From IMG/VR virus record IMGVR_UViG_3300045988_174937: DNA of 64,000 bases; one strand, written 5' to 3'. This stretch comes from a virus. Both the position numbers and the translations under genes were made by a program. Below the pieces are notes generated by a model, which had not been told where the DNA came from, ran no database searches, and saw only the letters and a list, made by a program, of their open reading frames with translations. Shown here in pieces: positions 16,268-47,466 of this stretch; position 1 is the stretch's first letter; each line of letters opens with the position of its first letter.

Positions 16268-16487
16268 CTAAACCCCCAATTAAAACCGCGTGTGGCAGAC
16301 GTGGCCCGAAAGTCCATGGGTGAGGGGGTTTTTAAGAAATTTCGTTCGTTAACGTTGTGGCAGTTCGCCCGTGCCGGCAAAGGGAACACCAATAGGAACG
16401 GCAACCGACGAGCGCGGGGCGTGAAATATCGCCCCGACCTTAAAGTCTTAACAGACTTCCATCAATCAAAGGTTTAATTCACCCCCG

Positions 16488-26123: not shown

Positions 26124-26156
26124 CACCAATTATAGCAAAGCAAATTGGATAATATC

Positions 26157-27926
26157 ATGCTCGGCATAAAAGAAAGACTCGAAATGGTGGACCGCGCTCA
26201 GCAGACATTAGCAGTACGCAAGTCGTTACTGCTGGAAAGTGCTATGCGCAGCGATAATCCGTCCGACATAATCAAAGCCGCCCAAATATTCAACCAGCAA
26301 TCTAAGCCTGGAAATTCGGCTCCGCGGGCGTACTTGATTGACCCCCTGGAGTTCAACTCATTTTTGGGATATAAGGATAAGCCGTTTTCGCTTTCGTACG
26401 AAACGTTGCGCCGGATGAGCCGTACCCCCATCATCAACTCGATTATCAAGACCCGTAAGAACCAGATAGCCGACTTCGCTGAACCGCAGGCCGACCGCTA
26501 TTCGACGGGTTTTGTTATTCGGCGTAAACCCAAGTTCGGCCAGGAGCAGAAGATGGACACGCAGGACCGCAAAATTGCGTCTTCCATCACCGACTTCATC
26601 CTCAACTGTGGTGATACCGCTACATGGGGCGGCGACGAGTTTGACGAGTTCATCCGTAAGATTGTGGACGACTCGCTGACGTTCGACCAGATGACGTTTG
26701 AGTGTATTCGTAACCGCCGCGGCAAACTGGTCCGCTTCCAGGCGGTTGATGCCGCTACGTTCCGTCTGGCGGAATCGTATTTCGACGGCGAGTACAACAA
26801 CCCCTACTTTGAGGGAGCGATGATGGACGACCGCCAGAACTGGGGACCCAAGGTCGATGGCTATTATCCGGCCTACGTCCAGGTGTACCAAACGGCCAAG
26901 GTAGCGCAGTTCTACCCCTGGGAGTTGTGCTTCGGCATCCGCAACCCAACCACGTCGATTTACGCCAATGGGTACGGAAACTCGGAGTTGGAAGAATTAA
27001 TCAACGTCGTAACATCGATGCTTTGGGGCGACGAGTACAACCGCCGCTTCTTCTCGCAGGGTTCGGCCCCGAAAGGTCTTCTGCGTATCAAAGGTAACGT
27101 GAACGAGGCTTCGTTACAGCAGTTCAAGCAGCAGTGGCAAGCCATGATATCGGGCGTTATGCAGTCGTGGAAGACGCCCGTCGTTGAGGGTGATATCGAC
27201 TGGGTTGACCTCCAGAAGAACAACCGCGATATGGAGTACAACTCGTGGATGGAATACCTGATTAAAATCGCCTGTGCGGTGTTCTGTATCGACCCTACAG
27301 AAATCGGCTGGGATATTTCGCGTTCCAACGGAAGCGGCCTAACGTTCGGCGACGGCCAAAAGCAGCGCATGGAGCAGTCGAAGGACAAGGGCCTTTACCC
27401 GATGCTGAAATTCATCCAGCGTAAGGTTAACAAGTTCATCGTCGAGCAAATCAACCCCGACTTCGAATTCGTATTCATGGGCCTCAACGGAATGACCATT
27501 TCTGAGGAGCTGGATATGGACATCAAACGCCTCCAGGCTTTCCAGACCGTGGATGAAATTCGCGAGAAATGGGACCTCCCGGCTATCGGCGAAGAAAAGG
27601 GCGGCGATACTATCGAAAACTCCGTTATTCAGCAAGCCATCAGCGCCAAACAGCAACAACAGCAACAGGCCGCGATGGGCGGTATGGGCATGGGCGGAGG
27701 CAATCCGTTCGAAGAGGCCGCGGGTATGGGTATGGAGGGCGGAGGCCCCGCTGACCAGCCTGTGGCCGGAGGCGACGGCGAAGAAGACGCCGCCGCTCAG
27801 CCGGGAAACCCGTTCGACCTTTACGCCGAGGGTGACCAAGAAGAAACCATGAAGGCACGCGAGTCTAACCCCCTCGTGGCTGCATTCGACGAATACTTAC
27901 AAAAAGCAATACACCATGACGAGTAA
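26157..27926 (+). CDS. portal protein
   Basis: ~590 aa. Track start TTG 26145 trimmed to ATG 26157. The core is portal-like in size and sequence character. The C-terminal tail is poly-Q plus Gly/Met-rich and acidic. Confidence 0.6.
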   Translation: MLGIKERLEMVDRAQQTLAVRKSLLLESAMRSDNPSDIIKAAQIFNQQSKPGNSAPRAYLIDPLEFNSFLGYKDKPFSLSYETLRRMSRTPIINSIIKTRKNQIADFAEPQADRYSTGFVIRRKPKFGQEQKMDTQDRKIASSITDFILNCGDTATWGGDEFDEFIRKIVDDSLTFDQMTFECIRNRRGKLVRFQAVDAATFRLAESYFDGEYNNPYFEGAMMDDRQNWGPKVDGYYPAYVQVYQTAKVAQFYPWELCFGIRNPTTSIYANGYGNSELEELINVVTSMLWGDEYNRRFFSQGSAPKGLLRIKGNVNEASLQQFKQQWQAMISGVMQSWKTPVVEGDIDWVDLQKNNRDMEYNSWMEYLIKIACAVFCIDPTEIGWDISRSNGSGLTFGDGQKQRMEQSKDKGLYPMLKFIQRKVNKFIVEQINPDFEFVFMGLNGMTISEELDMDIKRLQAFQTVDEIREKWDLPAIGEEKGGDTIENSVIQQAISAKQQQQQQAAMGGMGMGGGNPFEEAAGMGMEGGGPADQPVAGGDGEEDAAAQPGNPFDLYAEGDQEETMKARESNPLVAAFDEYLQKAIHHDE

Positions 27927-31512: not shown

Positions 31513-33588
31513 ATGAAAGAAATTATCAACTACGGCGAAGCACGTCGTCAACAAATTCTGAAAGGTTTTACCAACATCGAAGAGTGTATCGAGGAAGCGC
31601 CGATTGAAAAAGCGCGTCACGGTGTTTACGCCGATAACGCTCAGAACCGCCGTCTGCAGCGCGTGGGCCAGGAGTATGGTCACGCCGCTCAGGAAAAGCC
31701 TGAGGCAGGCCAGGAAGAGGGTGGTGTACCGGAGGGCAACGTAAGTCTCCAGAACCACGCTCGTCAGGCTTCAGAAGAGGCCCTCGTAAAGGTGGCCAAC
31801 GACCCGTCGGCCGACGCTGAGATGCGTAAGGTAGCCACGGCTGAGCTGGAGCGTCGTGGCGTAAACGTTCGCGCCAAGAACAAGAAAGGCGACCAGTCGC
31901 TCCGTAATGGTTTGGCTGACGGCGACGCCAAGTCGGCTTCGACGTTCGAAGCCATGGGCTTCCGTCAGATGGACGACGAGGACCTGGCTCAGTACGCCGG
32001 AGTTGAAGACGCCGCTCACGCTTTCATCAAGCAGGTTGGCGGTGACGAAGACGGCTTTGACCTGGTAGTTACCAAGACCAGCGAGGGTTACCGTGTGGAC
32101 AAATACCCCTATGCTGACGTGGACAATTTTGAGTCCGTGACGGTCAAGAAAATCGAGGATGTCGAGGGAGCCGCTTCTAAATTTGGTGACCCCGATGCTA
32201 AGGGTGGAAAGGCTGATGCCAAGTCGCTGGTCGACAGTTTCTACTCTGCCATGGAGGATGAGGGAGATTTCGACGCTAAGTCGTTCAAATCCTATGTGAA
32301 GGAAAAGGGCGGCAAAGTCGTTAAAGAACTGGCTGCGGCCATCGGTAACTTACCCAGCGAGACGATGTCGAGTGACCCCGATGATGAGGAAATCGCCGCT
32401 GAAATCGAATCGATGTTCAAAGAGGCGGGGATGCGCGTTCCTCGCGAAGTCAAGAAAGAACTTGATAAACTCCAAGGTTCCGCTGAGGGCGTTGTGGATA
32501 AATGGAACGCTTATCTCGAAGAAGAGGACGGTGGCGAAGATTTTGCCGATTCTCTCCAGTCGCTGGTTGATAAAAAGAGCGACGCCAAGGTAATCAAGGA
32601 ACTTGCCGAAGCGTTCCGCAATCTTCCGGCAGAGACGATGTCCAGCGACCCGGATGACGGTGAGATTGCCGACGAAATCGCCAACATGTTCGAAGAGGCT
32701 GGGGTTACACTTTCGAAGAAAGGTCAGGCCGCTCTTGACAAGATGCGCGATGATTCCGACTACGAAGAAAACGCCGACGACGCCGGGGAACTGGTACGCA
32801 GTTTCGACGATATGGCCGAAAACGATACCGATTTCGATTCCGCAGGATTCAAGTCGTTCGTCAAGAAGAAAGGCGACGCCGCCGCCATCAAAGCACTTGC
32901 CCGGTATATTCGGGAAAATCCCCTGGGTGGTAACATGGAAAGCGAACTCGATGACGACGAGATTGCTGAGGTTATCGAAAACATGTATGCCGAGGCTGGC
33001 GTAAAGGTATCTGAGGATGGTCACAAGGAACTCGACGCTTTGCGCGGTGGCCAGAAAGAAAGCGATACCAAGCAAGCCGAAAAGGCTGAGCGGGCCAAGA
33101 AAGCCGCTGCAGCCGATAAGACTTCTAAGGCAAAAGGCGCCAAACTGGACGCTACTCTGAAAACCGTTGAGTCGGTGGACAAGATGGTGAAAGATGTCTT
33201 CAACGAAGACAACTCGAAGAAATTCCTCAAGAATTTTCTGAAAGACCCTGAAGCACATGCCAAGGTCCTGTCCCAGCGCATAAAGTCGGGCGACAAGAAG
33301 ACTGCTGCTGACGCTCAGTATGTTGCTAACCGTATTGCCGGCATTATCATGGACCCCGTGTCTCGCAGTCGCGGCGAGGGCGTTGGTCAGGAAATCGGCA
33401 ATCATCCGGAGTTGAAGAAATTTATCGATGCAAACGATGAGGCTAACAACATCAAGTGGAATCAGTTCGGCATGGACAAAGAGGAATCTCGGAGGTTGTT
33501 CGACGAGAAGAGGAAGAAGATGGATGCCGCACGCAAGGGATTTGTAAGCAAGTTCCTTGAGATTTACGGCGGTAACAAAGAGGAGTAA
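31513..33588 (+). CDS. large acidic protein with shared leader, NRRLQRVG motif and three ~72-aa tandem repeats; putative capsid-internal protein
   Basis: 691 aa. Leader GEARRQQILKGF...IEKA. YADNAQNRRLQRVG at 31627-31668. Repeats at 32269-32481, 32542-32757 and 32833-33051. Confidence 0.5.
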   Translation: MKEIINYGEARRQQILKGFTNIEECIEEAPIEKARHGVYADNAQNRRLQRVGQEYGHAAQEKPEAGQEEGGVPEGNVSLQNHARQASEEALVKVANDPSADAEMRKVATAELERRGVNVRAKNKKGDQSLRNGLADGDAKSASTFEAMGFRQMDDEDLAQYAGVEDAAHAFIKQVGGDEDGFDLVVTKTSEGYRVDKYPYADVDNFESVTVKKIEDVEGAASKFGDPDAKGGKADAKSLVDSFYSAMEDEGDFDAKSFKSYVKEKGGKVVKELAAAIGNLPSETMSSDPDDEEIAAEIESMFKEAGMRVPREVKKELDKLQGSAEGVVDKWNAYLEEEDGGEDFADSLQSLVDKKSDAKVIKELAEAFRNLPAETMSSDPDDGEIADEIANMFEEAGVTLSKKGQAALDKMRDDSDYEENADDAGELVRSFDDMAENDTDFDSAGFKSFVKKKGDAAAIKALARYIRENPLGGNMESELDDDEIAEVIENMYAEAGVKVSEDGHKELDALRGGQKESDTKQAEKAERAKKAAAADKTSKAKGAKLDATLKTVESVDKMVKDVFNEDNSKKFLKNFLKDPEAHAKVLSQRIKSGDKKTAADAQYVANRIAGIIMDPVSRSRGEGVGQEIGNHPELKKFIDANDEANNIKWNQFGMDKEESRRLFDEKRKKMDAARKGFVSKFLEIYGGNKEE

Positions 33589-34272: not shown

Positions 34273-34829
34273 TAGATGAAGTGACGAGGGTATTTCACGA
34301 AGCTAATCGATACCGCCACGACCACTTGCGTAAAGCCATAGGTGCTTTTGAGGGAAGCCTCACCGACGGCGATGCGCTGGAGAAGGCCCGTTCGAAGACA
34401 GGGCGGTACGCCAACACGGCCAAGAATCGGAAATTAGGGCGCGTCGGAATGCCGTATGAAAAGAAATCACGCTTCCCCGCGCCTCATCAGCGTCGAGATT
34501 CCGAGCACCGTCAAGAAGGTACGTATATTCGTACACTTACGGTGGGTGATGGCGCTGAAGCAGTCGAAATAGCCGACGATGGCGTTGCTCGTAACGATTT
34601 TTACGATAATCAAGAAGTCGGTAAATACGCCAAGCGTCATTATGAAAAAGTGAAAAACGGCGACAAGGTTCGTTATGACGGCAAGGTGAAAACCGTTTAC
34701 GCAACCAAAGAATTGACTGAAAACGGCATTACAACGCAGTACGTTCAATTTGTAGGCAGACCGTCGTATAGCGGTGCGCCACGTGGTACAGGTAAGTGGG
34801 TTCCGCGAAAAGACGTCGAGAAACTATGA
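34263..34829 (+). CDS. protein with shared leader and NRKLGRVG motif
   Basis: 188 aa. ...DALEKARSKTGRYANTAKNRKLGRVG (motif at 34407-34448). Confidence 0.5.
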   Translation: MGVVDEVTRVFHEANRYRHDHLRKAIGAFEGSLTDGDALEKARSKTGRYANTAKNRKLGRVGMPYEKKSRFPAPHQRRDSEHRQEGTYIRTLTVGDGAEAVEIADDGVARNDFYDNQEVGKYAKRHYEKVKNGDKVRYDGKVKTVYATKELTENGITTQYVQFVGRPSYSGAPRGTGKWVPRKDVEKL

Positions 34830-35758
34830 TTTTCAACAACCGCCAAATAGACGACATGGTCGGTATTCTCCGGCGCTGGCAGTACCTGTTCGTTGCCAAG
34901 CACGTCGGACTGGACTTTCTGACCCAGTCGGAGATCGACATCTTGGTGGCGTCAGGGGTCAACGTCGATAAGTACAAGAACACGAAAGGCATCATCGAAC
35001 ACGCTTTTCTGTTCGGTATCTTGGCTGAGGCACTCGGCGATCAACGCGCCAAGAAGATGAATTACAAGCAATTTCTCCAGTTCCTGAAGTCGGGAAATTT
35101 CGTACCGCTCACCGAGCAGGAGGAAAACGCGCTCAACTACCTCAAGAACCGCGCCTATACCGACATCACGTCGCTCGGCAACCGTATCGTTACCGGAACA
35201 CGGAACGCCATCCTCAAATCGAATTTCCGTCAGCAATCGGTAATACGTCAGCAAATCAAAGACAAGGCTATTCAAGCCGTTCAACTCCGTAAGGGAGCCC
35301 GGTATATAGCCAGCGAACTCGGAAACCTTACCCAAGACTGGGGACGCGATTGGCTGCGTATTGCGTACTACCTCCTGCACGAAGCCTACAACGTGGGCCG
35401 CTCTGAAAGTATTTTCAAGCAACACGGGCCTGACGCCAAAGTGTATTTCGACGTCTATCCAGGCGCGTGCGCTAAGTGCCGGGAGTTGTACTTAGAAGAC
35501 CCCGAGGACCCTACCTCGAAACCGAAACTGTTCCGTTTGGCGGACCTTATCGCTAACGGTAACAACATCGGTCGTAAGGCGGCAGAGTGGCTCCCTACGA
35601 TTAACCCGACGCACCCCTACTGCCGTTGTACGATTAATTACGTTCCTGACGGCTTTGATTGGGACCCCGCAACTCGCGCTTTCACCAAGCCCGTCAAACG
35701 CCAGTTTAAGGACCCAAAGTTAAAGAACTTGAAACTTAACATTAAAGTTACCAAATAA
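34826..35758 (+). CDS. MuF / SPP1 gp7-like minor head (head morphogenesis) protein
   Basis: C-terminal CAKCRELY...INPTHPYCRCT (the HPxCRC signature of the Phage_Mu_F family). ATG 34826 makes an ATGA overlap. Confidence 0.65.
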   Translation: MIFNNRQIDDMVGILRRWQYLFVAKHVGLDFLTQSEIDILVASGVNVDKYKNTKGIIEHAFLFGILAEALGDQRAKKMNYKQFLQFLKSGNFVPLTEQEENALNYLKNRAYTDITSLGNRIVTGTRNAILKSNFRQQSVIRQQIKDKAIQAVQLRKGARYIASELGNLTQDWGRDWLRIAYYLLHEAYNVGRSESIFKQHGPDAKVYFDVYPGACAKCRELYLEDPEDPTSKPKLFRLADLIANGNNIGRKAAEWLPTINPTHPYCRCTINYVPDGFDWDPATRAFTKPVKRQFKDPKLKNLKLNIKVTK

Positions 35759-36714
35759 TGAAAAACAAAATCGTACAAGACCCCCCGTTCACTATCCAGG
35801 TCGAGCCAACTGAGGGGTGTAACCTGGGATGTTCGTTTTGCGGTTTGCGCGGTATGCGTGAAAAAGGTACCAAACCGTGGCTCTTTATGACGCTTGAAAC
35901 TGCTGAGCGTATTGCGTCGGAAGTGGCTCGCGTGGGGTGGAAATGTAAAATCGTGTTTGCTATGCATGGCGAACCTACGTTAAACCCTAAGTTGGTTGAT
36001 ATTATCGGCGTGTTTCGTAAGTATTTGCCGAAAACCGTTTTTCACATGTACACTAACGGCTATGGCATCAACCGCACAGATGATACGGCGGCTTATCTCG
36101 ACCGTCTGTTCGAAGCAGGAATCAACGACATTTTGGTCGATTGCTATACTGCCAAGGGGGACTGGAATTTTGTGGATAAAATCGACATTGAAAAGTACAA
36201 CGTCACGGCCCTTGAACCTGGCGTTCCGTACTATCTCCCCAAGCAGGGGCGTCGTATTTTGCTGTTGCCGCCACTTACCGAGGATGACATCAACAAAGGA
36301 ACGCGTCGTCTGGCTAACCACTGCGGCGCGGCGTTCCCGCTCGACGACTCATTCAACAACAAACGCTGTACTTTCCCGTTCCGCGAACTGGATGTACGTT
36401 GGAACGGCCAGGTGTGCCTGTGCTGTGACGACTTCCGCGGCGAGTATCCTATCGCCAATATCCACGATATGCCTATCGAAGACCTCTGGAATCATCCGCG
36501 CTTCCACGCTGCCCGCGTGATGCTGTACAACAACGACCGTCGGTTCCGTCCGTGCCAGGGTTGTACACACGTCAGCGTCCGCGTCGGTTTCCTGCCTGAT
36601 AAGATGGGCAAGAAAACGCTCCCGCCTATCACGCCGGAAATTCGCCGTATGGCTGAGGACGTATCGAAGGACGGCCCCTGCGCCGAGATTTACAAACGGC
36701 CATGGGAAAAATAA
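35758..36714 (+). CDS. radical SAM enzyme with SPASM/twitch-like C-terminal Cys domain
   Basis: CNLGCSFC (CX3CX2C) near the N-terminus. GEP-type AMHGEPTLNP. C-terminal C-X12-G-X4-C plus CQGC. Confidence 0.75.
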   Translation: MKNKIVQDPPFTIQVEPTEGCNLGCSFCGLRGMREKGTKPWLFMTLETAERIASEVARVGWKCKIVFAMHGEPTLNPKLVDIIGVFRKYLPKTVFHMYTNGYGINRTDDTAAYLDRLFEAGINDILVDCYTAKGDWNFVDKIDIEKYNVTALEPGVPYYLPKQGRRILLLPPLTEDDINKGTRRLANHCGAAFPLDDSFNNKRCTFPFRELDVRWNGQVCLCCDDFRGEYPIANIHDMPIEDLWNHPRFHAARVMLYNNDRRFRPCQGCTHVSVRVGFLPDKMGKKTLPPITPEIRRMAEDVSKDGPCAEIYKRPWEK

Positions 36715-37382
36715 AGTACCTCTGTGTCGAGCCGCACGCAGGTGACCTCCTGATGAGCGCTTGTCACGTTTTAGTAGCACCCGAATATGACGTTCGGGTG
36801 CTTACTGTAGATAGCGACCCAAAACGCGTCGAGGAACAGCGCCAACTGTGTGATTTTCTTGGTATAGCTATGGACTATCTGGACCTGGAGTTAGAAGATG
36901 TCCGTTGTAGCAATTTTCAGAGCCAATGTAGGGATTTAAGCTATGAAGCGGTCTATACGTATCTTCGGAATAAATACGACTCTGACGGGCTTAATTTCGC
37001 TGAACAAACGCTTCGCGATTATTTGCGTAAGTTTATGCGCCGCAACCCCGGTTACACGTTACTGGCGCCTCTCGGTGCAGGACACCCGTTCAACCAGTTT
37101 ATCCACGATACGGTATATGACACGGCGTCCAGCGCGGAATATTATCGCGACTTCCCTTATTCGTATGCATCGCGAGGCCGTGAACAAGTACGCGTGCAAT
37201 GTTATAACAGCGAAAACCTACTGATGAAACGCCGGGTATCGTGCGACGATATGTTTGACGTTAAGTGGGAGTTGGTTATACGGTTTTATCCTTCGTTGGA
37301 AGCCACTATGGATAAATACCAGCGTTTTATAGAGCAGAACCCGCCCGAGGAAATATGGTACGAGGGTGAATTACCGTTTTGA
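36702..37382 (+). CDS. LmbE/PIG-L-like (GlcNAc-conjugate deacetylase fold) protein
   Basis: YLCVEPHAGDLLM sits where vLvvsaHPDDe is expected. TLLAPLGAGHPFNQFIHD sits where the HxDH motif is expected. 13-nt overlap with the rSAM gene. Confidence 0.4.
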   Translation: MGKIKYLCVEPHAGDLLMSACHVLVAPEYDVRVLTVDSDPKRVEEQRQLCDFLGIAMDYLDLELEDVRCSNFQSQCRDLSYEAVYTYLRNKYDSDGLNFAEQTLRDYLRKFMRRNPGYTLLAPLGAGHPFNQFIHDTVYDTASSAEYYRDFPYSYASRGREQVRVQCYNSENLLMKRRVSCDDMFDVKWELVIRFYPSLEATMDKYQRFIEQNPPEEIWYEGELPF

Positions 37383-37438
37383 CGTTGTGTTCACGTTTTC
37401 ACAAGTATATCAAACGTGTAAACCTAAAATTGCAAAAT

Positions 37439-38866
37439 ATGAAAGTTCTTATTGGTGAATTTGTAATGAGCCCTTACGGAGGCATCGCTGCCTATGTAAC
37501 GGAGATAATTAAAGGGTTCAAATCTCTGGGGTGTGATGTCGACTTGTTTCGGCTTTCCCCCAGTAAGATAACCCAAAAGGCGTATGACGCTAAATGTGCT
37601 GAGTTGAAATCTGGCGATTATAAGTATAAGTCGTCGTCGGGTTTTGAATACGACGCAAATGTTGGCTATTGGTGCAACAGCATAGAGGGCTACATGCTTC
37701 CGCCCTCTAACCGAATTCCGGTCTACGAAGAGGGGGCGCTCGAACAGTGGCATAAATTGGCGGACACGGCGGATATCGTTCTATGGAATTTCCTTCCTAC
37801 GCATAACCGCGCCTGGGAGGGTAAAAACGGACAGCCGTTCGATTATTGGTACAAATTCTTCGACTTGCCGTCCAGTGTATCACAGGTGTATATCGTGCAT
37901 GATATTTCGCCTGACAAACGCAATACATATCTTTCTGTGCTAAAGGACAAGATTCTGTTCTTGGCCGTTGCTCACCTTGTGGGATACAAATGCTGTGAGA
38001 ATATCGGCATACCGCGCTCTTTGCTTCTCAATCCACGCTTTCTTGACGAGAAGAAGAGCCCGGCTACGCCGATGAAGTCGCGCGAGGTGGATTTCTTTGC
38101 AGGGCACATTTTCAAGCCAGTTAAGCACTTGGAAGAGTACATTCGCGCTATTCCGTACATTAACGCCAAGAAGCAGCACACATGTTGGTTGGCGGGTGCA
38201 GGAATCGAACAGAACTACATGACGGCTCCGGTGAAAATTAAGCCGCGATACATATGCTCTAAAACCTATGATCCCGACTTGGACCCGGCCCTTGAGGGTA
38301 AGGTTACTATTTGGAACCGGGCCTTGGAATGCGGCATGGAGTACTTTGGGCTGTTGAGTGTTAGCCAGGTAAGCGACGTGCTGGATAACGCTAAGTTTGC
38401 CATTGACCCGCAATACAGCCCGTATGGTTCGCTTCATGGCCGTACTCACATAAATGGGTTCATCATCGAAGCACTTGTCCATGGTACATATCCCGTAATA
38501 CGAGATTATCGTGGCATTACGCCGGAAAGTCTTACAGTTGAAGACCCGATTTTCGACGTAATGGAAAAGATAGCCATTCCCTGGGATGCGACCCCAAAAC
38601 AGTTTGCTCAGATGTTAAAAGACGCTTTGCGTATGGACCCTGAAAAGTACCTCGCTGATACGGACCATAATTACAAAGTGGCTTTGGAATTGTTTAACGC
38701 TCGCGCCAATGCTGAAGAAATAATTCGTATTTGTAAGGGCGGGAAGAAATATGTCAACAAACACCTGGAATGTGGCGAAGATTCTCCAGAGGTGCAAAAG
38801 AGTACCAATAAGATGATGGAAGAATTTTTCCACATACCACTGCCTCTCAAATGGGAGAACAAGTAA
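37439..38866 (+). CDS. GT-B fold glycosyltransferase (GT4-like)
   Basis: Track start TTG 37379 trimmed to ATG 37439. N-terminal MKVLIGEFVMSPYGGIAAYV. C-terminal NGFIIEALVHGTYPVI (EX7E-like). Confidence 0.55.
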   Translation: MKVLIGEFVMSPYGGIAAYVTEIIKGFKSLGCDVDLFRLSPSKITQKAYDAKCAELKSGDYKYKSSSGFEYDANVGYWCNSIEGYMLPPSNRIPVYEEGALEQWHKLADTADIVLWNFLPTHNRAWEGKNGQPFDYWYKFFDLPSSVSQVYIVHDISPDKRNTYLSVLKDKILFLAVAHLVGYKCCENIGIPRSLLLNPRFLDEKKSPATPMKSREVDFFAGHIFKPVKHLEEYIRAIPYINAKKQHTCWLAGAGIEQNYMTAPVKIKPRYICSKTYDPDLDPALEGKVTIWNRALECGMEYFGLLSVSQVSDVLDNAKFAIDPQYSPYGSLHGRTHINGFIIEALVHGTYPVIRDYRGITPESLTVEDPIFDVMEKIAIPWDATPKQFAQMLKDALRMDPEKYLADTDHNYKVALELFNARANAEEIIRICKGGKKYVNKHLECGEDSPEVQKSTNKMMEEFFHIPLPLKWENK

Positions 38867-38867
38867 C

Positions 38868-38898
38868 AACAGGGGATGCTTTCGAGGCATCCCCTGTT
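38868..38898 (+). terminator. rho-independent terminator
   Basis: Stem AACAGGGGATGC/GCATCCCCTGTT with loop TTTCGAG. Confidence 0.75.
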
Positions 38899-38933
38899 TG
38901 TATGCCAAATATAAGTTTACAAATGCTTATTTT

Positions 38934-40688
38934 ATGGTAGAACAATTTGAAAAAGCGAAGCACAACGTCGGCGACCACCACCCTACCCAGCCGTGGGTGT
39001 GGACGGAATACAAGCCTGGCAAATTCGATTGGCGTCACGAGAAAAAGAACGCTAAACCCAAGCCCAGCGCCGATACTGGCAAAGAGTCGGGTAATTCGGG
39101 TCCTGTGACGAGTCTTGAAGCGTGGGCCAAGAAGACCAGCGACGATAACCTTTTGAAGGTTGTTAACAACCCTAAAGGCAGCGCCCAGTTGCGGCATATT
39201 GCCTACAACGAGTTGAAATCTCGTAACGCCGATATGTCGCAGGTGGACACCAGCGGAACGCTGTCCACGTTGCTGAAGATGACTACTCAACAGGACCCTG
39301 TTGCGCCTACCACCACCGGAGCCAAGGTGGACATCAACGACGGCGAGGGCGGTAACGACGATGGCGAAATCGTCGAAGACTGGTTCCTCAACCCTGAGGA
39401 CCCGCGCATTCAGAAAAAGTTCAACAAACTCCAGAGCCGTCAAGACCGTATCGCTTACGACCGCTTCGTCTATGCGATGAAGAAAAAGGACCCCGATTAC
39501 GAACCGCCCGTTGAGGTCATGTACGACCTGAACCGCCAGTATCTGGAGTTCCTCGATAACAAGGAGCAGCGGTTCATGATATCGGCTGGCGGTGCAGGTA
39601 TCGGTAAATCTTACGGTTTCAAGAAGATTGCCGAACTGCTCAACAAGCGTCCGTTCGACGCTGAAACCGACTCTCCGGGTGACGGCGACTATGACTACGT
39701 TGAACTCGGCGATATCAACTCCAAGAAGCAACTGCTGGGCGTACTGAAAGCCCACAACGGTAAGATTCTTCTGTTCGACGATACCGATTCCGTTATCACC
39801 CGCACCGACCTGGCTTCTATCATGAAGAAAGCCACCGCCGCTTCAGGTAAGCGCGTGGTCGGCGACCCGGAGGACGTCAAGTCGAATTTCGTATTCACGG
39901 GCCGTATCATTATCATGACCAACAAGGACCTCGTGAATCTTTCGAAGAACGAGGACACTAAGGCCATCATTTCGCGTGCTACGCTGACGTCGGAGGTATA
40001 TCTTACCGTCGATGAAACTATCGAGGTTCTGAAGGACCGCTACGAGGAAATGGACATCCCCCAGCAGCCGCACCTCGAAGACCCCGAAGAGGACAAGAAG
40101 GAGCGCAAGGAGCTGTACGACCTTATCGTCAAGAATAAGAACAAAATCGACCCCGCTAAGTTTACCACCCGTACCTTTGGAACCATCCTGTCGGAGAAGC
40201 GTTCTACCGACCGTTCTAACAGGATGGCCAAGATAGGCGGTGAGTGGACCAACCTCATCGGCGATAAGCAAAAGGAGTGGGAGCGGGCCGCAGTACGTGC
40301 ACTGACGAAAGGATTCGTGTACGAGGCCATCCAGCCCGTCGAAACCTCCGACGAGATAGCCAAGGCTGAAGCGCTGCTCGACTCCGCAGAATCGCTCGAA
40401 AAGGCCGATTTTACCGAAAAGCAGCGTGAGCGTCTTGCCGACAAAAAGGAGGCTCTCCCTGACGGTTCGTTCCCGATTCGTAACAAGTCCGACCTGAAGA
40501 ACGCCATCCGTCTGGCCGGCAACGCCAAGAATCCTGAACGCGCCCGGCGTTGGATTAAACGCCGCGCCAAATCGCTCGGTGCCGAGGATATGATTCCCGA
40601 TACGTGGAAAGCCCGTGCCACGGACCTCGGTGCATTACCCGCCGACGATATGTCGATTGAAAAAGCAGAAACCCTTTTGTTCGGATAG
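38934..40688 (+). CDS. P-loop AAA+-like ATPase with C-terminal LPDGSFPIRNKSDLKNAIRLAG motif
   Basis: Walker A GGAGIGKS, Walker B KILLFDDTD, sensor-like IIIMTN. Track start trimmed to ATG 38934. Confidence 0.55.
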   Translation: MVEQFEKAKHNVGDHHPTQPWVWTEYKPGKFDWRHEKKNAKPKPSADTGKESGNSGPVTSLEAWAKKTSDDNLLKVVNNPKGSAQLRHIAYNELKSRNADMSQVDTSGTLSTLLKMTTQQDPVAPTTTGAKVDINDGEGGNDDGEIVEDWFLNPEDPRIQKKFNKLQSRQDRIAYDRFVYAMKKKDPDYEPPVEVMYDLNRQYLEFLDNKEQRFMISAGGAGIGKSYGFKKIAELLNKRPFDAETDSPGDGDYDYVELGDINSKKQLLGVLKAHNGKILLFDDTDSVITRTDLASIMKKATAASGKRVVGDPEDVKSNFVFTGRIIIMTNKDLVNLSKNEDTKAIISRATLTSEVYLTVDETIEVLKDRYEEMDIPQQPHLEDPEEDKKERKELYDLIVKNKNKIDPAKFTTRTFGTILSEKRSTDRSNRMAKIGGEWTNLIGDKQKEWERAAVRALTKGFVYEAIQPVETSDEIAKAEALLDSAESLEKADFTEKQRERLADKKEALPDGSFPIRNKSDLKNAIRLAGNAKNPERARRWIKRRAKSLGAEDMIPDTWKARATDLGALPADDMSIEKAETLLFG

Positions 40689-40691
40689 TTT

Positions 40692-43073
40692 ATGGACGAA
40701 CTGAGAAAAGCGCTGGAAACTTTCGCCCTCCGTAATGCCGAGGGCGATGTTTCTGACGCCGTATTGGAGAAAGCCTGTGAAGCGTACAAGGCCCGTTCCG
40801 AGTTCGTCGATGACTACGAGTACAGCCTGTATGTAACCAAGTCGTTGTACGACCATCTCCACGGCGTTGAACAGGACCCGGATATCGTAAAGGCTATCAT
40901 GCCTGGTCAGACTAAGGTAGTCAATGGCGTGGTGTACATTTGGACGCTTACACCAAACGCCAAAACTACCTACGACTGGCGTGTGTACAAGAATCCTCAA
41001 GGCATACCTGTTGGAAAAGGGGCTTTTCGTTCCAAAGTCATGTTGGCTCAACAGGAAAAGGAGGTGAATGAAATGTTCCCCGCCGACCCCTCGCAGCTGA
41101 CCTTTGTACAGAAATTAGGCGGTTCCACGGGAGCCGTCCTGATGAAGGATGCCAAGGGCCGCGAATTTGTCGTCAAGAGTTCAAAGAACACCAATCGCGG
41201 TCACGTTGCGGCAGAGTACTACGCCGCGCAGGTGTACAGTCTCTTGGGGTTGGACACGCCGGACTATGAGTTGTATGACGACGGCACCGACCTGACGCTT
41301 ATCTCGAATTACATGCGTGGTATGTCCGAACCCCAGGTTAAGGACTATGACGCCATGGCTAAAGGTTTTGTTGTTGACGCCTTTCTGGCCAACTGGGATG
41401 TCTATCAGAACGACAACTGCCTGGTAGATGCGGCAGGAAAGGTTTACCGCGTCGATAATGGCAGTGCGTTCAATTACCGGGCACAAGGAGCCAAAAAACC
41501 GTTCAACGACCAAATCGACTGGGACGGCATGGTACGCTACAATCCCAGTATCATAGCCAACCTCAAGCCACAGGATTTTATTGACCAGATTGACGCGCTT
41601 AAAGCCCGTAAAGAAGAAATTCTGGCATTTTTCGACGCTGGAAGATTGGCGTCGAAGCCTAAGATGCGTGCCATAATCGAGGCCCGATTCAAGGACCTGG
41701 ACCGCATCCGCGGGTACTACGAGGTTGAGTTGCGCCGCACCACGCGCCAAGTTAAACCTCGGACGCTGAAATCTCAAGCGGATATGTACCGCGAATTTAC
41801 AGAGGACGAGGTGAACGATTTTTGGCAGAATCAGGACGGTGGCGCCTACTATCGAAAATTACAAAGACACGGCGGAGATACCGGGTGGGAGTTGCTTTCC
41901 ACCATTTGTGCCGCTCGTGGTTTTGATGCTCGCCCCGATGTCGTTGACGACGCTGCGTTCTGGGCCAAGGCGGCTTCGGCTAAGTATCATATGTTCCGCG
42001 GCGTTGCCCCGCGTGGAAGCGACAAAAACTACTTTGCCGACGACTTCAAATACAACGACGCCTGCTATTATGGAACTGTTGGTATCTACGGCGAGGGAAT
42101 TTATTTTCACGTCAACGACTCCAGCAACGCCGACCGCACTCCTTCGGGATACAAAAAGACTTCGGCATACCATAACGTACTCGGATACGCTGGCGCTGGC
42201 GCCGTTATTGAGGCGTGTCTCGAGGACGACGCCAAGGTCATAACCGTCGCGGACGCCATGGAGGAGGTCAGGCAGTTGGCTGCTGGTAACTCAGCAGCAC
42301 TGAAAGCCGCACAGGCCGAACTCGACAACGCTAAGGCCGAATATGACCGTGTCAGCGACGAACTCGAAAACCTTACCGATAACACCAAGAAGCAGGTTAA
42401 GTCCAGTATGCACTGGGACGATGCTTCGTATATCGACATTCCGTTGCAGATTGACCAAATAATCGACTGGGGTGCTATCGACGATGACGGCAACCCGGCG
42501 TACATGAAATTCGACGACTTCATGGACAACCACCTCCGTGGCTGGGTCACCGCTAACGGCGGCACTATCACGGAAAAGGGTAACGGTACGGGCGATTACG
42601 TTATCAAGATGCCGAATACGGCGGAACGGTTCGTGTTCTCGCGCTATCGGTACGAGAACGACGCCATCAAGCGCAAGAACGGTTTCGCCCGCCCTTACAA
42701 CTACCCCGTTCGCCAGTTCAAGGAATGGATTATGCGCGAGCACTACGGTAAAATCGAGGACGCTGTGGAAGAAGCCGTTAACAACCTCGGCGACGAAATC
42801 AAGCGTCTTCAGGGAGAGCAGCGTAAAGCGTACACCGTTTATCAGGATAAGCGCGATGCGGTGAGCAAAATCAACGTAACCTCTGTTGGCGACCCTGATA
42901 AGGATATCTATGCCGCTATTTACAAAAGCGTTCATGAGGGCCACGATAAGGAACCGTTGGGAGTTTATGCCGCTTTGAAAGGATACGACGCTCTCATCCA
43001 ACCCAACGGTAACTACTGTGGTAACTCCTTCATGATTGTGCTGAACCGCTCGAAAATCATTACTCGAAAATAG
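40692..43073 (+). CDS. large multidomain protein: protein-kinase-like domain plus ADP-ribosyltransferase-like domain
   Basis: Kinase-like features: FVVKSSK, AAEYYAAQ, ANWDVYQNDN and RVDNG (~41094-41592). ART-like features: HMFRGV...GIYGEGIYFHV...AVIEACL (~41905-42255). Confidence 0.45.
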   Translation: MDELRKALETFALRNAEGDVSDAVLEKACEAYKARSEFVDDYEYSLYVTKSLYDHLHGVEQDPDIVKAIMPGQTKVVNGVVYIWTLTPNAKTTYDWRVYKNPQGIPVGKGAFRSKVMLAQQEKEVNEMFPADPSQLTFVQKLGGSTGAVLMKDAKGREFVVKSSKNTNRGHVAAEYYAAQVYSLLGLDTPDYELYDDGTDLTLISNYMRGMSEPQVKDYDAMAKGFVVDAFLANWDVYQNDNCLVDAAGKVYRVDNGSAFNYRAQGAKKPFNDQIDWDGMVRYNPSIIANLKPQDFIDQIDALKARKEEILAFFDAGRLASKPKMRAIIEARFKDLDRIRGYYEVELRRTTRQVKPRTLKSQADMYREFTEDEVNDFWQNQDGGAYYRKLQRHGGDTGWELLSTICAARGFDARPDVVDDAAFWAKAASAKYHMFRGVAPRGSDKNYFADDFKYNDACYYGTVGIYGEGIYFHVNDSSNADRTPSGYKKTSAYHNVLGYAGAGAVIEACLEDDAKVITVADAMEEVRQLAAGNSAALKAAQAELDNAKAEYDRVSDELENLTDNTKKQVKSSMHWDDASYIDIPLQIDQIIDWGAIDDDGNPAYMKFDDFMDNHLRGWVTANGGTITEKGNGTGDYVIKMPNTAERFVFSRYRYENDAIKRKNGFARPYNYPVRQFKEWIMREHYGKIEDAVEEAVNNLGDEIKRLQGEQRKAYTVYQDKRDAVSKINVTSVGDPDKDIYAAIYKSVHEGHDKEPLGVYAALKGYDALIQPNGNYCGNSFMIVLNRSKIITRK

Positions 43074-44029: not shown

Positions 44030-45799
44030 ATGCCTACTTTTATTGACATGTCGAACCTGACGAAGCGTTCGACCCTTACCGGAAACGAGGAGTTTCAGGT
44101 ATCTGCCACCGAAAAGGTGACGTCCCAGCAGATTGCTGACTTAGCAAGTAGTGGACTTAATGTTTATACTGTATCTGAAAGTGAATTTCAGAATCAAAAG
44201 ATAGATGCTTCACGTGTAGAGGAACTTAAAAAGTCTGAATTAGTATTATTTCCTAACGAGGGAAGCTATACACCTTATTTTAAGGTTTCAGTAGATGACA
44301 GTAAAGCATATTTTATAACAGGAAATATACCTATTAATTCACAAGGCCAACCTGGACTTAATAATGGAGAAGAGCCTCCTTTTGAGCAGATTCAAACTGT
44401 GATGGTTGAAGTTGACCTTACTACTTATGATATAACAATACAGCCTTATCCTGTTATAAGTAAGAGTTGGTTTAAGGGAGATGTCTCAGTTATAGAAATT
44501 ACAGACTTTGCCATTCCCTCAGTTAATATTACTAAGGATGGTCAGAGTTTCTTATTCTATGCCAATGATGCCAGCAACATCCCTAATAACAATCATGGAG
44601 CTGCTTCATTTGTAGGTGTAGCCATTGCAAGTTCTATCTTCATAACCGGAGACCAAAGATTGCTGTATTATATGATGGTAGATACAGCAAAGGCTATGTT
44701 TTATACAGGGTATGCAAATCTGGAAGATGATACTGTAACATGGAGTGATACTCCAGTTACTCGCTTAGGACAAGCCGTACAGGTTACTGCCTTTACTGAA
44801 GGCGCATTATCGGCATTGCTTTATAGCTACAAACCGGGTGATTTTATACCGTTTTACACGGGTAACGTTACTGCTTCTACGGCTAATCAATTCCCTGAGT
44901 CAGGCATTTTCAATGGCTTTATCTCCATGGGTAGCAACGAAGGAGATTATTTCCAAATCTTTGCTTTCAAGACAGGTTCTCCCAATGCTTACATTGGAGC
45001 TTGTATTGGTAGTACCACAAGGTGGACCCAGATAGGAGGGGGCTCAAGTAATCTTATTGTCGTAGCAGATGCAGAAAATGTAGGAGAGGTAGTAGCTGCA
45101 TACAAAGGATTTGAGGGTTCGAATAAATATGGAGTATCAGTACCTATCTACATAGAAGCCACGTCCAATATTTATGATGAACTACCAGCTATAATGGATC
45201 AGAGCTTTACAAAAGATGAATCTACTATATGCGGATATGCCCAATATGTCTACGACGGAGGAGATTATTATCACATAGGGTTAAGCCTGCTTATATATCC
45301 ATCAAGTGGAGATCGTCCCAAATATAGAGCGGAGCTTGTTGTAAACAACAGCGGGGAAGTAGTTAGCAGTAGTCTTACCCCTATTGGCAGTGCACATGCT
45401 CCCATCCCGGGATTCACTAAAATTACTTCCTTGGCTGGTCAAACTGACTACTCCCTCACAAAAGGATCTATGGGCGTTATTAACTTTAGCATTGAGGTAA
45501 ATGCGTTGACCACAATGTTTATAGAAGCAGAGGTCCGATCATCTGCTGCTATATCTGCTGATGTCAGATCTGTGTGTATCCCTGTCTCTTTCTTCAATCC
45601 TAAAGAAGGTGCCACACTCATGGATTTGAATACTCGTACTTTAGCTTCTGGAACCAATATTGCTCAAGTTAAGCTAAATGTTGCTTCTGTTGTCACAGGA
45701 GCTAATGGTGTACAGGGATTAAATTGTGTAGTTACTTCGAACAATCTTGCAAATCCCTCTGATATTCTAAGAATAAAGGCTGTATATGCCAATATCTAA
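44030..45799 (+). CDS. fibre / receptor-binding-type protein with compositionally foreign body
   Basis: 589 aa. The N-terminal MSNLTKRSTLTGNEEFQVSATEKVTSQQIADL is a fibre-anchor-like motif. G+C drops sharply from ~44140 to the stop. Confidence 0.5.
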   Translation: MPTFIDMSNLTKRSTLTGNEEFQVSATEKVTSQQIADLASSGLNVYTVSESEFQNQKIDASRVEELKKSELVLFPNEGSYTPYFKVSVDDSKAYFITGNIPINSQGQPGLNNGEEPPFEQIQTVMVEVDLTTYDITIQPYPVISKSWFKGDVSVIEITDFAIPSVNITKDGQSFLFYANDASNIPNNNHGAASFVGVAIASSIFITGDQRLLYYMMVDTAKAMFYTGYANLEDDTVTWSDTPVTRLGQAVQVTAFTEGALSALLYSYKPGDFIPFYTGNVTASTANQFPESGIFNGFISMGSNEGDYFQIFAFKTGSPNAYIGACIGSTTRWTQIGGGSSNLIVVADAENVGEVVAAYKGFEGSNKYGVSVPIYIEATSNIYDELPAIMDQSFTKDESTICGYAQYVYDGGDYYHIGLSLLIYPSSGDRPKYRAELVVNNSGEVVSSSLTPIGSAHAPIPGFTKITSLAGQTDYSLTKGSMGVINFSIEVNALTTMFIEAEVRSSAAISADVRSVCIPVSFFNPKEGATLMDLNTRTLASGTNIAQVKLNVASVVTGANGVQGLNCVVTSNNLANPSDILRIKAVYANI

Positions 45800-45906: not shown

Positions 45907-47466
45907 ATGTTTAAGGACGATAAATTCAATTTCTGGTGTCCCATCGGACGCATCGAGAAGGCCACCGACGAAGCGGGAGAACCCGTTATGCGTATCGGCG
46001 GTATTGCCTCTACTATGGATAAGGACGCCGACGGAGAGTATTTGGACCCCTCGGGGTTTGACGTCGAGCCGCTGAAGAACTCCGGAATGGTCAACTGGCA
46101 CCACCAGGCCAAGAACTCTCCAGCCGCTATCATTGGCGAACCGTCGAAAGTAGAACTGCGACCCGAGGGTCTTTGGATAGAAAGCGACCTTTACGCTTCG
46201 TCCCCTATGGCCAACGAGGTCTATGAATTGGCCAAAACCCTCGAAGAGGACAGTAAGACGCGCCGCCTGGGGTATTCCATCGAGGGAAAGGTTCTGAAGC
46301 GTGGTTCTAACGACAAGAAATCGCCTCTTTACAACAAAATCGTCAAGGCTGTTATTACGGGTGTCGCCGTAACACACATGCCCAAAAACCCGCATACGTT
46401 CGTTAACATCATCAAAGGTCAGGTGGACGCTGACGGTATTGAGGTTGAATTGGAGGAAGAGGACGATAACACCGAAGAGCGTGGTGGTAAAACCGAGAAA
46501 AAGGCTCTGACTACAGAGTCTGGTGCGGCGTTGGTTCCGGAGTCAGTTGATGGCCAGCCGAAGAAAACGTTTTCCAAATCTTCCGTCATGGAAGCTATCT
46601 TCCGCGATATTCCAAATATTACAATACCGAATGCGCACGAAGTGTATACACTAATCAAAAATATATCGGTTATGAACAAACGCAAATCCATCACTTCCGA
46701 GGACATCGAGAAGGCATACGATGCTCTGGGGCTCACGCCCGAGGGTAAGGCTTCCGGTGCTGAAGACGTGCAGAAAGGTGACGACGCCGACGGTCAGATG
46801 GGTAAGGAAGACGAAACCCATGACGACGAACCGCGTCACAATGCCGCCAACATGCGTAACGCTAAGGCTGGCGAGAAGGAGGAATCCGAAGAGGAGACCG
46901 AGGACGATGACGAGGGCTTCGAGCAGTGCGACAAGAACGGCGCCAAGATGAAAAAGGGTGGCAAGATGAAGAAAGGCGGCGATGTCGACCTCCTGAAAGC
47001 CATTCAGGACGTTGGTAACGATTTCAAGTCGTACATCAAAGCCACGGCCGTCTTGGTGAACGATCTTCGCCAGAAACGCGCTGAGGACGCTAAGCGTATC
47101 GCCGAACTGGAGAACATCATCAAGGGCCAGACCGATGTCATCGAGGGCTTCGCTACCAAACTGGAACGCTACGGCAGCGAGGTGCCGCGTCCGAAGTCGC
47201 TGCGCTCGGCTACGGTTATCGACCGTGCGTTTGCTAAGGGCGCCGGCAAGGGTGACATCGAAAAGGGCGGCGATACCGCTCGCATCTCGCTCCGCGAGAA
47301 CCCCCGCGCCGTTGCTTCGTTGCTCGACCAGGCGTCGTTCGCTAAGGGCTACGACAAGGAGTACGGCGATGCACTTTTGGCGTTTGAGGCACGTCCCGGT
47401 GACGGTCTCCCCAAGAACATCATCGCTCGTCTCAAGGCCGAGACCGGGTACGAGGTAGTAGAGTAA
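45907..47466 (+). CDS. prohead protease (HK97/S78-like N-terminal domain) fused to scaffold-like acidic coiled-coil region
   Basis: The N-terminal MRIGGIASTMDKDADGEYLDPSGF...VNWHHQ...IIGEP resembles S78 proteases. The C-terminal half is Glu/Lys-rich. Confidence 0.6.
   Translation: MFKDDKFNFWCPIGRIEKATDEAGEPVMRIGGIASTMDKDADGEYLDPSGFDVEPLKNSGMVNWHHQAKNSPAAIIGEPSKVELRPEGLWIESDLYASSPMANEVYELAKTLEEDSKTRRLGYSIEGKVLKRGSNDKKSPLYNKIVKAVITGVAVTHMPKNPHTFVNIIKGQVDADGIEVELEEEDDNTEERGGKTEKKALTTESGAALVPESVDGQPKKTFSKSSVMEAIFRDIPNITIPNAHEVYTLIKNISVMNKRKSITSEDIEKAYDALGLTPEGKASGAEDVQKGDDADGQMGKEDETHDDEPRHNAANMRNAKAGEKEESEEETEDDDEGFEQCDKNGAKMKKGGKMKKGGDVDLLKAIQDVGNDFKSYIKATAVLVNDLRQKRAEDAKRIAELENIIKGQTDVIEGFATKLERYGSEVPRPKSLRSATVIDRAFAKGAGKGDIEKGGDTARISLRENPRAVASLLDQASFAKGYDKEYGDALLAFEARPGDGLPKNIIARLKAETGYEVVE

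Follow-up and report, generated by a model that had tools for sequence, protein, structure and literature searches.

Directly downstream of a MuF-like minor head protein gene, the IMG/VR sequence IMGVR_UViG_3300045988_174937, from a tailed gut phage of about 100 kb, carries a cassette encoding a BtrN-like radical S-adenosylmethionine enzyme (rSAM), a divergent protein of the LmbE/PIG-L family and a glycosyltransferase (GT) of the GT-B fold. We analyzed a stretch of 64,000 nucleotides of this sequence, called the window in the following, to which all positions refer; its genes all lie on the plus strand and are tightly packed. Comparison with related phages shows that the LmbE-like gene together with a GT gene is the core of the cassette, found in more than 100 related uncultured contigs of about 100 kb, and that rSAM is an accessory member in about one third of the loci. 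Whatever the target may be, it is highly probable that the three genes constitute one functional module for sugar transfer and sugar tailoring, and the most likely role of the system is to attach a modified sugar to some component of the phage. The features of the cassette and of the gene to which it is coupled are as follows.

34826–35758, plus strand: MuF-like minor head protein gene (the start used by the orthologues is ATG 34826; the open reading frame opens with GTG 34796)
35756–35760, plus strand: TAATG, shared by the stop codon of the MuF-like gene and the start codon of rSAM
35758–36714, plus strand: BtrN-like radical SAM enzyme, 318 amino acids, assigned by Pfam and by the family profile against PDB
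35818–35841, plus strand: CX3CX2C motif CNLGCSFC (C21, C25, C28) for the radical-SAM [4Fe-4S] cluster, invariant in ten orthologues
36367–36567, plus strand: twitch/SPASM auxiliary-cluster domain, residues 204–270 (SPASM and N_Twi_rSAM models)
36702–37382, plus strand: divergent LmbE/PIG-L-family protein with degenerate active-site motifs, 226 amino acids
36732–36746, plus strand: PHAGD, residues 11–15, where the family has PHSDD; Gly at the position of the general-base Asp
37080–37094, plus strand: GHPFN, residues 127–131, where the family has GHPFH (the HPDH of LmbE enzymes); Asn at the position of the third zinc-ligand His
37383–38946, plus strand: replaceable GT slot, at which DNA homology to the TAGT-bearing sister phages L014 and L018 breaks
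37439–38866, plus strand: GT-B fold glycosyltransferase, 475 amino acids
38868–38898, no strand assigned: perfect hairpin with a 12-bp stem, closing the cassette and being part of the swapped GT segment

The gene neighborhood was surveyed in 32 loci seeded with rSAM, in 80 loci seeded with canonical LmbE-like sequences and in contigs found via the individual proteins. The cassette follows directly after the MuF-like gene in all 69 complete LmbE-seeded loci and in every rSAM-seeded locus reaching upstream of the cassette, so that the survey, which the original prediction had named as a check, revealed a conserved placement. Downstream there is usually a gene for a P-loop protein and then one for a protein of about 790 amino acids. 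Synteny is kept down to 32–49% sequence identity. The composition is more variable: 45 of the 69 complete LmbE-seeded cassettes have the order MuF–LmbE–GT-B without rSAM, 21 contain rSAM, LmbE and GT-B, and three combine rSAM, with or without an FkbM methyltransferase, with a fusion of LmbE and a TAGT glycosyltransferase. These 45 cassettes rule out that rSAM is an invariant member, as the rSAM-seeded survey had made it appear. Gene fusions occur between rSAM and LmbE (P0135, followed by a GT-B gene) as well as between LmbE and TAGT (P0142), which ties the three activities to one process. The coupling within the window is as originally described, with the TAATG overlap to the MuF-like gene and a 13-nt overlap in which the rSAM stop codon (36712–36714) sits within the LmbE-like reading frame starting at 36702. 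What had been proposed as a three-enzyme pathway therefore stands as a unit, judged by synteny, fusions, selection and the coupling to the MuF-like gene, but not as a fixed trio. Being encoded in the head-assembly module, the cassette is presumably expressed late.

TAGT enzymes were seen only alongside rSAM (in the clade of the window, in L003/L004, L145, L147 and L171), an association which is only suggestive since it rests on few independent lineages. In L171 a second rSAM gene (312 amino acids) follows the LmbE::TAGT fusion. Genes inserted at the junction of LmbE and GT-B mostly encode GIY-YIG homing endonucleases (L029/L030, L134, L149–L152, L168, L176, L188, L199 and others). Methyltransferases are optional extras: two arrangements of the cassette (L001/L191 and L138) include a gene for a DNA N6/N4 methyltransferase, and an FkbM-type enzyme is found in other cassettes. 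Distant LmbE-like and GT4 genes, joined in L128 and L129 by a class-I methyltransferase gene, are present in L128, L129, and L130 next to helicase, gyrase/topoisomerase IV, TnsA-like, and nucleoside 2-deoxyribosyltransferase genes. These sets may be a separate version of the LmbE and GT pair belonging to the replication module.

The rSAM protein had been predicted from its CNLGCSFC motif and the cysteines of a SPASM/twitch-like C-terminus, and this was borne out. It matches Pfam Radical_SAM (PF04055) with an E-value of 3.5e-14 (53.8 bits, cut-off 29.5) and SPASM with 2.8e-12 over the entire model (47.2 bits, cut-off 21.5), both above the curated cut-offs; N_Twi_rSAM is matched with 6.7e-10, under the whole-protein cut-off. 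The elements C204-x12-G217-x4-C222 and C266-QG-C269 span 36367–36564, and in the C-terminal domain C204, C222, C223, C266, and C269 are invariant in ten orthologues, together with one near-invariant cysteine. Such a set of cysteines is compatible with one twitch-type auxiliary cluster, as in BtrN. When the profile of the ten orthologues was compared with PDB, BtrN, the 2-deoxy-scyllo-inosamine dehydrogenase of butirosin biosynthesis (PDB 4M7S/4M7T), was by far the best match, aligning with an E-value of 2e-16 through core and auxiliary-cluster domain alike, followed by the anaerobic sulfatase maturase anSME (4e-7). The similarity to BtrN is, however, remote: the phage enzyme has an extra segment of about 65 residues between core and twitch domain, it is encoded in a head module, and a dehydrogenase reaction of the BtrN type is merely a possibility suggested by homology. 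The gene is under purifying selection with dN/dS values of 0.02–0.08.

The LmbE-like protein of the window on its own has no direct match in Pfam, PHROG, NCBIfam, or PDB. An exhaustive profile search recovered 90 relatives, most of them with the canonical PH(S/P)DD and HPxH motifs. In PDB the family profile matched nothing but LmbE-family deacetylases, with Dbv21 (1.4e-10, nearly full length) and Orf2* of teicoplanin biosynthesis (1.1e-9) at the top, and a stricter profile built from phage sequences only still found Dbv21 (3.1e-4) and had no matches outside the LmbE family. Of 47 family members, 21 match Pfam PIG-L (PF02585). Aligned with Dbv21, the PHAGD of the window protein lies over PHLDD and GHPFN over KHPDH, and in the AF2 model (pLDDT 94.6) both motifs follow β1 and β4 as they do in LmbE enzymes. 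The family-profile alignments agree with the LmbE/PIG-L layout originally read from VEPHAGD and GHPFNQFIHD. We accept membership in the LmbE superfamily on sequence grounds, with the caveat that Foldseek of the model against PDB returned weak generic Rossmann-like matches and no LmbE entry.

Within the putative active site two residues of the His-Asp-His zinc triad (H12 and D15) are present and the position of the third ligand is occupied by N131. At the position of the general-base aspartate (first D in HxDD) the window protein has a glycine, G14, as does its whole clade. All relatives whose rSAM is at least 86% identical carry PHAGD and HPFN and drift further to PQAGD, QPFN, and NPFN, with H12 sometimes replaced by Q and H128 by Q or N; in the more distant clades PHSDD and HPFH are retained throughout. 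The gene is nevertheless intact everywhere and under purifying selection (dN/dS 0.11–0.22); a broken LmbE gene, considered for L011–13, L016, and L027–28, was ruled out by tblastn. With the general-base Asp and one zinc-binding His lost, canonical deacetylation, and hence a free amino sugar, appears doubtful for this phage. An amino-sugar adduct, which had been named as the obvious product, is thereby put in doubt as well.

The third enzyme, whose start is most likely ATG 37439 rather than TTG 37379, was modeled with AF2 from an alignment of 41 sequences (pLDDT 89.5, pTM 0.89). The model has 276 matches in PDB at E ≤ 1e-3, and the best 50 listed are all GT-B enzymes, among them glycogen synthase, PimA, MshA, T4 α-glucosyltransferase, and BshA; among viral models it matches phage 'DNA α-glucosyltransferases' and SP-15 transferases. 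The predicted structure is clearly of the GT-B fold. The GT4 part of the original assignment fared less well, the Pfam matches being weak and confined to homologues (Glyco_transf_4 in 28 of 41, best 1.4e-5; Glycos_transf_1 in 17 of 41, best 3.6e-4), with none for the window protein. Of the originally proposed checks, the profile searches support rSAM directly and the LmbE-like protein by way of its family profile, and the structural comparison supports the GT-B fold but returned no LmbE entry. T4 α-glucosyltransferase (PDB 1XV5, 1Y6F, and related entries) gives the highest query-normalized TM-scores of the PDB matches (0.55–0.58), but there is no detectable sequence similarity, PimA, MshA, and BshA match about equally, and the phage enzyme exceeds that of T4 by about 75 residues and has a conserved β-rich insertion in the N-terminal domain. 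A comparison of the GT family with the T4 enzyme by hhalign gave a probability of 2%; this comparison and one with the GT4 of L128 were uninformative owing to the low diversity of the alignment.

The GT gene occupies a slot which has been exchanged between related phages. In the closest relatives, with rSAM 87–90% identical, the third gene encodes a TAGT of 267–277 amino acids (JGT/GREB1-type; PF20691, E 1.8e-13). DNA homology to L014 and L018 ends exactly at the stop codon of the LmbE-like gene (37382) and resumes at 38947, just within the next gene. The exchange of this slot explains that the best database matches of the GT are only about 52% identical, as against 74–98% for the LmbE-like protein, and that the segment is lower in G+C. 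The lower G+C of the last two genes, already part of the original description, is indeed found, with 0.479 for the LmbE-like gene and 0.470 for the GT gene as compared to 0.517 for the window. The hairpin at 38868–38898 is the strongest across 31–46 kb (about −27 kcal/mol for a segment of 73 nt); its T-tail on the plus strand is short (TTTGT), so that the original reading as a strong terminator is justified only in part. The TAGT variants have a different, weaker hairpin.

As the leading, still tentative, explanation we propose that the cassette glycosylates a virion protein or an ejected cargo protein with a tailored sugar of the hexosamine type. The GT-B enzyme would take a nucleotide sugar of the host and glycosylate an acceptor hydroxyl during head assembly. 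To our knowledge every characterized relative of the LmbE family acts on a GlcNAc conjugate, for example on the peptide-linked GlcNAc of teicoplanin-type glycopeptides, and since the GT is always paired with a protein of this family, the donor would probably be a UDP-HexNAc. In most lineages the LmbE partner (PHSDD...HPFH) would then strip the N-acetyl group. In the clade of this phage the LmbE-like protein (PHAGD...HPFN) would most likely be a nondeacetylating, sugar-binding subunit for its partners. Where rSAM is present it would tailor the sugar, its 5′-deoxyadenosyl radical abstracting a sugar C–H hydrogen and the single auxiliary cluster taking up the electron; this could yield an epimer or, as in the BtrN reaction, a keto-sugar. 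Diversifying selection acting on the glycan is suggested by the range of GTs and tailoring enzymes in these cassettes.

A protein target is in line with the fixed place of the cassette in the head/cargo module and with its coupling to the MuF-like gene. The radical SAM enzyme anSME acts on proteins, and enzymes with SPASM or twitch domains often have proteins or peptides as targets. Dbv21 and Orf2*, the top PDB matches of the LmbE family, deacetylate GlcNAc on a peptide scaffold. Pairs of GlcNAc-transferase and deacetylase are well known (MshA/MshB, BshA/BshB, PIG-A/PIG-L, BtrM/BtrD). With these and with Orf2*/Dbv21 the phage cassette shares its core, an adjacent pair of a GT-B and an LmbE gene, and members of these systems are also among the top matches, MshA and BshA for the GT structure and Dbv21 and Orf2* for the LmbE sequence. 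The phage system differs in that this clade has lost the catalytic Asp and one zinc-binding His, in that a downstream ligase or acyltransferase is absent, in that a GT-A-like TAGT can take the place of the GT, and in its setting in phage morphogenesis. Virions of mycobacteriophages and chloroviruses are glycosylated, with GT genes in or next to the structural operons and with sugar-tailoring methyltransferases, but we know of no LmbE or rSAM partner in these systems. Finally, the TAGT clade found in the slot of the sister phages and in the LmbE fusions includes GREB1, which O-GlcNAcylates a protein using UDP-GlcNAc (PMC7968844). GREB1 is, however, a eukaryotic multidomain protein, and the GT of the window is a GT-B enzyme and not a TAGT.

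Several observations weigh against a protein target. The structural proteins were scanned and have no Ser/Thr-rich acceptor tracts, as opposed to the situation in mycobacteriophage capsid glycosylation, and neither a protein nor a DNA acceptor is evident. We know of no LmbE-family enzyme that acts on a glycoprotein, the closest characterized rSAM, BtrN, acts on a small molecule, and the TAGT family is best known for acting on DNA bases. To these come the DNA N6/N4 methyltransferase in two arrangements of the cassette, the distant sets of LmbE-like, GT4, and methyltransferase genes in phage replication modules, the likeness of the GT-B model to T4 α-glucosyltransferase and phage DNA glycosyltransferases, which is as good as that to PimA, MshA, and BshA, and the Foldseek outcome for the LmbE-like model. 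These phages have no cultured member. The isoelectric points of the cassette enzymes do not discriminate between DNA-binding and other roles.

Late, post-replicative glycosylation of DNA by the GT-B or TAGT enzymes is the next best explanation, one that we consider unlikely on balance; the LmbE-like protein and rSAM would tailor the sugar, or rSAM would make the acceptor. The original prediction had left the choice between virion or cargo proteins and the packaged DNA open. TAGT/JGT-type and GT-B enzymes glycosylate 5-hydroxymethylcytosine or 5-hydroxymethyluracil in phage DNA (PMC8256090; bioRxiv 10.1101/2023.12.21.572611), and the nearest relatives of this phage have a TAGT (PF20691) in place of the GT-B enzyme, while elsewhere a TAGT is fused to LmbE. 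The clusters linked to 5mYOX(TET) and ThyS described in these two studies, the first being Burke et al. 2021, likewise fill one slot with either a GT-A enzyme of the JGT/TAGT-like kind or a GT-B enzyme, and they share optional sugar-tailoring genes and a similar GT diversity. The phage cassette, however, lacks TET/5mYOX, ThyS, and a C5-methyltransferase and has rSAM and the LmbE-like protein in their stead, neither of which is mentioned in PMC8256090 or bioRxiv 10.1101/2023.12.21.572611; it also differs in its location in the head module and in the strong avoidance of restriction sites. Further points in favor of DNA are the match of the GT-B model to the T4 enzyme, to the phage 'DNA α-glucosyltransferase' and to the SP-15 GT models, the insertion of the DNA methyltransferase at two different positions of the cassette, the distant LmbE-like, GT4, and methyltransferase trios adjoining helicase, topoisomerase, and nucleoside deoxyribosyltransferase genes, and the deacetylase within the sugar-hypermodification block of phage Carin-5 (PMC12686479).

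An enzyme making a DNA acceptor was looked for in the whole genome of about 97 kb. The 33 kb beyond the window were reconstructed from the near-identical IMG/VR contig IMGVR_UViG_3300045988_165188 (97.6 kb), whose rSAM is 100% identical to that of the window; 41 reading frames of window positions 1–26 kb and 28 of the outer 33 kb were compared with Pfam, and the structural region was scanned too. The matches comprise Pol III alpha, DnaB, RecA, SbcCD, UvrD, and a dUTPase/DCD-like protein, and there is no ThyA-like hydroxymethylase, TET/JBP, or C5-methyltransferase among them. Every DNA glycosyltransferase known to us needs a hydroxylated base, and two thirds of the cassettes are without the rSAM that could supply such an acceptor. 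The analogy to radical SAM enzymes of phage thymidine hypermodification, drawn in the original prediction, has likewise to be given up: the enzyme is BtrN-like instead, and those pathways require 5-hydroxymethyldeoxyuridine, a kinase and aGPT-Pplase enzymes, of which the Pfam matches of the genome show no sign.

The DNA itself argues in the same direction. Palindromes and restriction sites are avoided to an extreme degree, AT-only and GC-only sites included, unlike in T4. CTAG occurs 0 times as compared to about 106 expected, GATC 47 times as compared to 383 expected, and AGCT has a ratio of observed to expected occurrences (O/E) of 0.47 (window plus the rest of the genome, L105 and L081); TTTAAA, AAGCTT, and CTATAG do not occur at all in the window and the rest of the genome. 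The median O/E of 6-mer palindromes is 0.77 in the reconstructed genome and 0.91 in the T4 control, and 18 of 54 such palindromes fall below 0.5 in the first 50 kb of the window (5 of 50 in T4). Such avoidance is expected of DNA which is exposed to restriction and not of DNA with blanket hypermodification. Any DNA modification would therefore have to be sparse or sequence specific. Moreover, the cassette is always found in the head module and never among replication genes, it is an insertion hot spot for homing endonucleases and inteins so that the methyltransferase insertions may be incidental, and the TAGT clade includes a protein O-GlcNAc transferase. With DNA weakened in this way by the missing acceptor-making enzyme and the site avoidance, a protein target is the favored one of the two. 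A special form of DNA modification, which we regard as quite improbable, is that rSAM is an oxygen-independent counterpart of TET/JBP, oxidizing the C5-methyl group of a pyrimidine (or another position) of phage DNA in strictly anaerobic gut hosts. Hydrogen would be abstracted, the auxiliary cluster would accept the electron, and water would be captured, giving a hydroxyl that TAGT or GT-B would glycosylate at sparse, specific sites. This would explain both that TAGT, associated with TET in other systems, is seen here only with rSAM and that the genome has neither TET nor hydroxymethylase.

Less probable than DNA glycosylation in general is a role of the cassette in producing or modifying a small molecule, such as a metabolite conjugated with GlcN or GlcNAc, or a component of the host; another option would be that the enzymes act on the host as effectors encoded in the island of ejected proteins. 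All closest characterized relatives (BtrN; Dbv21/Orf2*; MshA, BshA, and PimA) act on such compounds, and the same three enzyme families (BtrN/BtrM/BtrD) build paromamine in butirosin biosynthesis. The genes next to the cassette resemble those of injected effectors, as exemplified by the fusion of MuF with a toxin, and the lack of an evident DNA or protein acceptor would also fit. All three butirosin families are present here, but the DOI synthase and the aminotransferase of that pathway are absent from the Pfam matches of the genome, as are a ligase and sugar-nucleotide genes. The cassette enzymes are devoid of the N-terminal motifs common to the putative cargo proteins, it would be hard to explain why a metabolite pathway keeps its place in the head module of deeply diverged phages, and there is no obvious benefit to a lytic phage.

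That the cassette is a passive moron or decaying cargo from a host polysaccharide locus, as the lower G+C of the LmbE and GT genes, the degenerate LmbE active site and the clear horizontal exchange of the GT might suggest, is extremely improbable and already largely refuted, given more than 609 rSAM and more than 330 GT-B clusters at 90% identity, essentially all on phage-sized contigs, a single match in 185,579 species genomes (a 10-kb contig binned in a Bacteroidales metagenome-assembled genome), the conserved synteny, the low dN/dS values of rSAM and LmbE, and homing endonucleases and inteins which target the locus as they do conserved core genes. The module is phage restricted, and the host-derived origin that the original prediction had named as its possible undoing did not materialize. 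We thus rank a protein target first, followed by sparse DNA modification, by a small molecule or host component and, last, by a moron; what remains is left to explanations we have not thought of.

The cassette lies within an 18-kb run of genes from the portal to the protease gene. The surrounding features are:

18497–20188, plus strand: large terminase
26145–27926, plus strand: portal
38934–43073, plus strand: downstream context outside the cassette, P-loop protein gene and 793-amino acid protein gene
38934–40688, plus strand: P-loop protein gene (reading frame from TTG 38898, likely start ATG 38934)
40692–43073, plus strand: gene of the 793-amino acid protein
45907–47466, plus strand: prohead protease
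47507–48994, plus strand: major capsid protein

The MuF-like protein is 57% identical to its orthologue in L002, the alignment starting from M11. It has no Pfam match itself, but six of 21 orthologues match Phage_Mu_F (PF04233, best E 1e-3); it matches PHROG 595 'head and packaging' with 2.6e-5 and contains an HPYCRC motif. These sequence matches are weakly consistent with a MuF-like assignment. In L029–L031 and L036 the orthologues (553 amino acids) carry a C-terminal papain-fold glutamine-deamidase toxin domain (Gln_amidase, PF15644, 2.9e-10). A C-terminal toxin fusion is the polymorphic-toxin architecture known for MuF proteins. The orthologues of L016, L017, L018, L026, and L028 (676 amino acids) contain an intein (Intein_splicing/Hint with a DUF559 endonuclease) directly before HPYCRC.

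Several proteins of the block between portal and protease have common short N-terminal motifs (31621–31653, 34401–34436, and 38994–39035). GxYA(D/N)xAxNRxLxRVG is found in a 691-amino acid and a 188-amino acid protein, and WVWTEYKPGKFDWR in the P-loop protein as well as in the extension at the C-terminus of the MuF-like protein of L029. Possibly these shared motifs are capsid-targeting signals of packaged cargo; the cassette enzymes lack them. The 691-amino acid protein (31513–33588) contains three tandem repeats of about 95 amino acids (...SSDPDDxEIAxEIxxMFxEAG...), and the lengths of 430 to 691 amino acids among close relatives suggest a variable repeat number. Behind the cassette the genes of the P-loop and the 793-amino acid protein are truncated or absent in the lineage of L029–L031/L036, where the cassette persists. 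By eye the 793-amino acid protein appears to contain a kinase region of the HipA/PI3K type and, behind it, possibly a YGxGIYF region resembling ADP-ribosyltransferases, for which Pfam support is weak (HipA_2 at 0.0073 for the L001 orthologue). A gene at 44030–45799 has a G+C of 0.39–0.43 as compared to 0.52, encodes 296–597 amino acids among relatives and has no family match. A single tRNA-Gln gene (anticodon TTG) is located at 16197–16268.

In its major capsid protein the phage shares 49% identity with the Bacteroides phages DAC16-23 and SJC03 and about 40% with SPO1-like Bacillus phages. Among 50,697 records of cultured phages the DNA of the locus found no megablast match, and tblastn with the GT-B protein of the window, the LmbE orthologue of L002 and the TAGT of L014 found no match either. 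For rSAM the matches in cultured phages are limited to 'BtrN' genes of Campylobacter phages with 23% identity, which belong to an unrelated multi-rSAM cluster. In the Campylobacter phage vB_CjeM_WX1 (L006) this cluster at 108.7–121.5 kb comprises at least six rSAM or rSAM-like genes together with an amidinotransferase and an aminotransferase gene; one gene, labeled 'BtrN protein', is 23% identical to the rSAM of the window, and the cluster is otherwise unrelated to the cassette. L019 and L023 are on one contig of 199 kb (IMGVR_UViG_3300029572_000001) with two diverged copies of this phage genome, which is probably an assembly joining two related phages.

The literature searched contains no description of a phage combination of rSAM, LmbE, and GT, of rSAM with TAGT, or of a relevant BtrN/BtrM/BtrD set, and we class the system as a variant of phage glycosylation not previously described there. 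The phages carrying it abound in metagenomes from the human gut and elsewhere; each enzyme forms hundreds of clusters at 90% identity on contigs of about 100 kb. For their enzymology the cassette adds a phage-restricted family of BtrN-like radical SAM enzymes, an LmbE-family protein under selection despite its lost catalytic residues and TAGT enzymes associated with rSAM. If DNA should be the target, the modification route would need neither oxygen nor a hydroxymethylase. A conserved and modular glycosylation cassette amid the head-assembly genes implies that a component of the virion bears a tailored sugar, and such a sugar could affect the host range of these phages, their interactions with the immune system and mucus, or their resistance to bacterial defenses.

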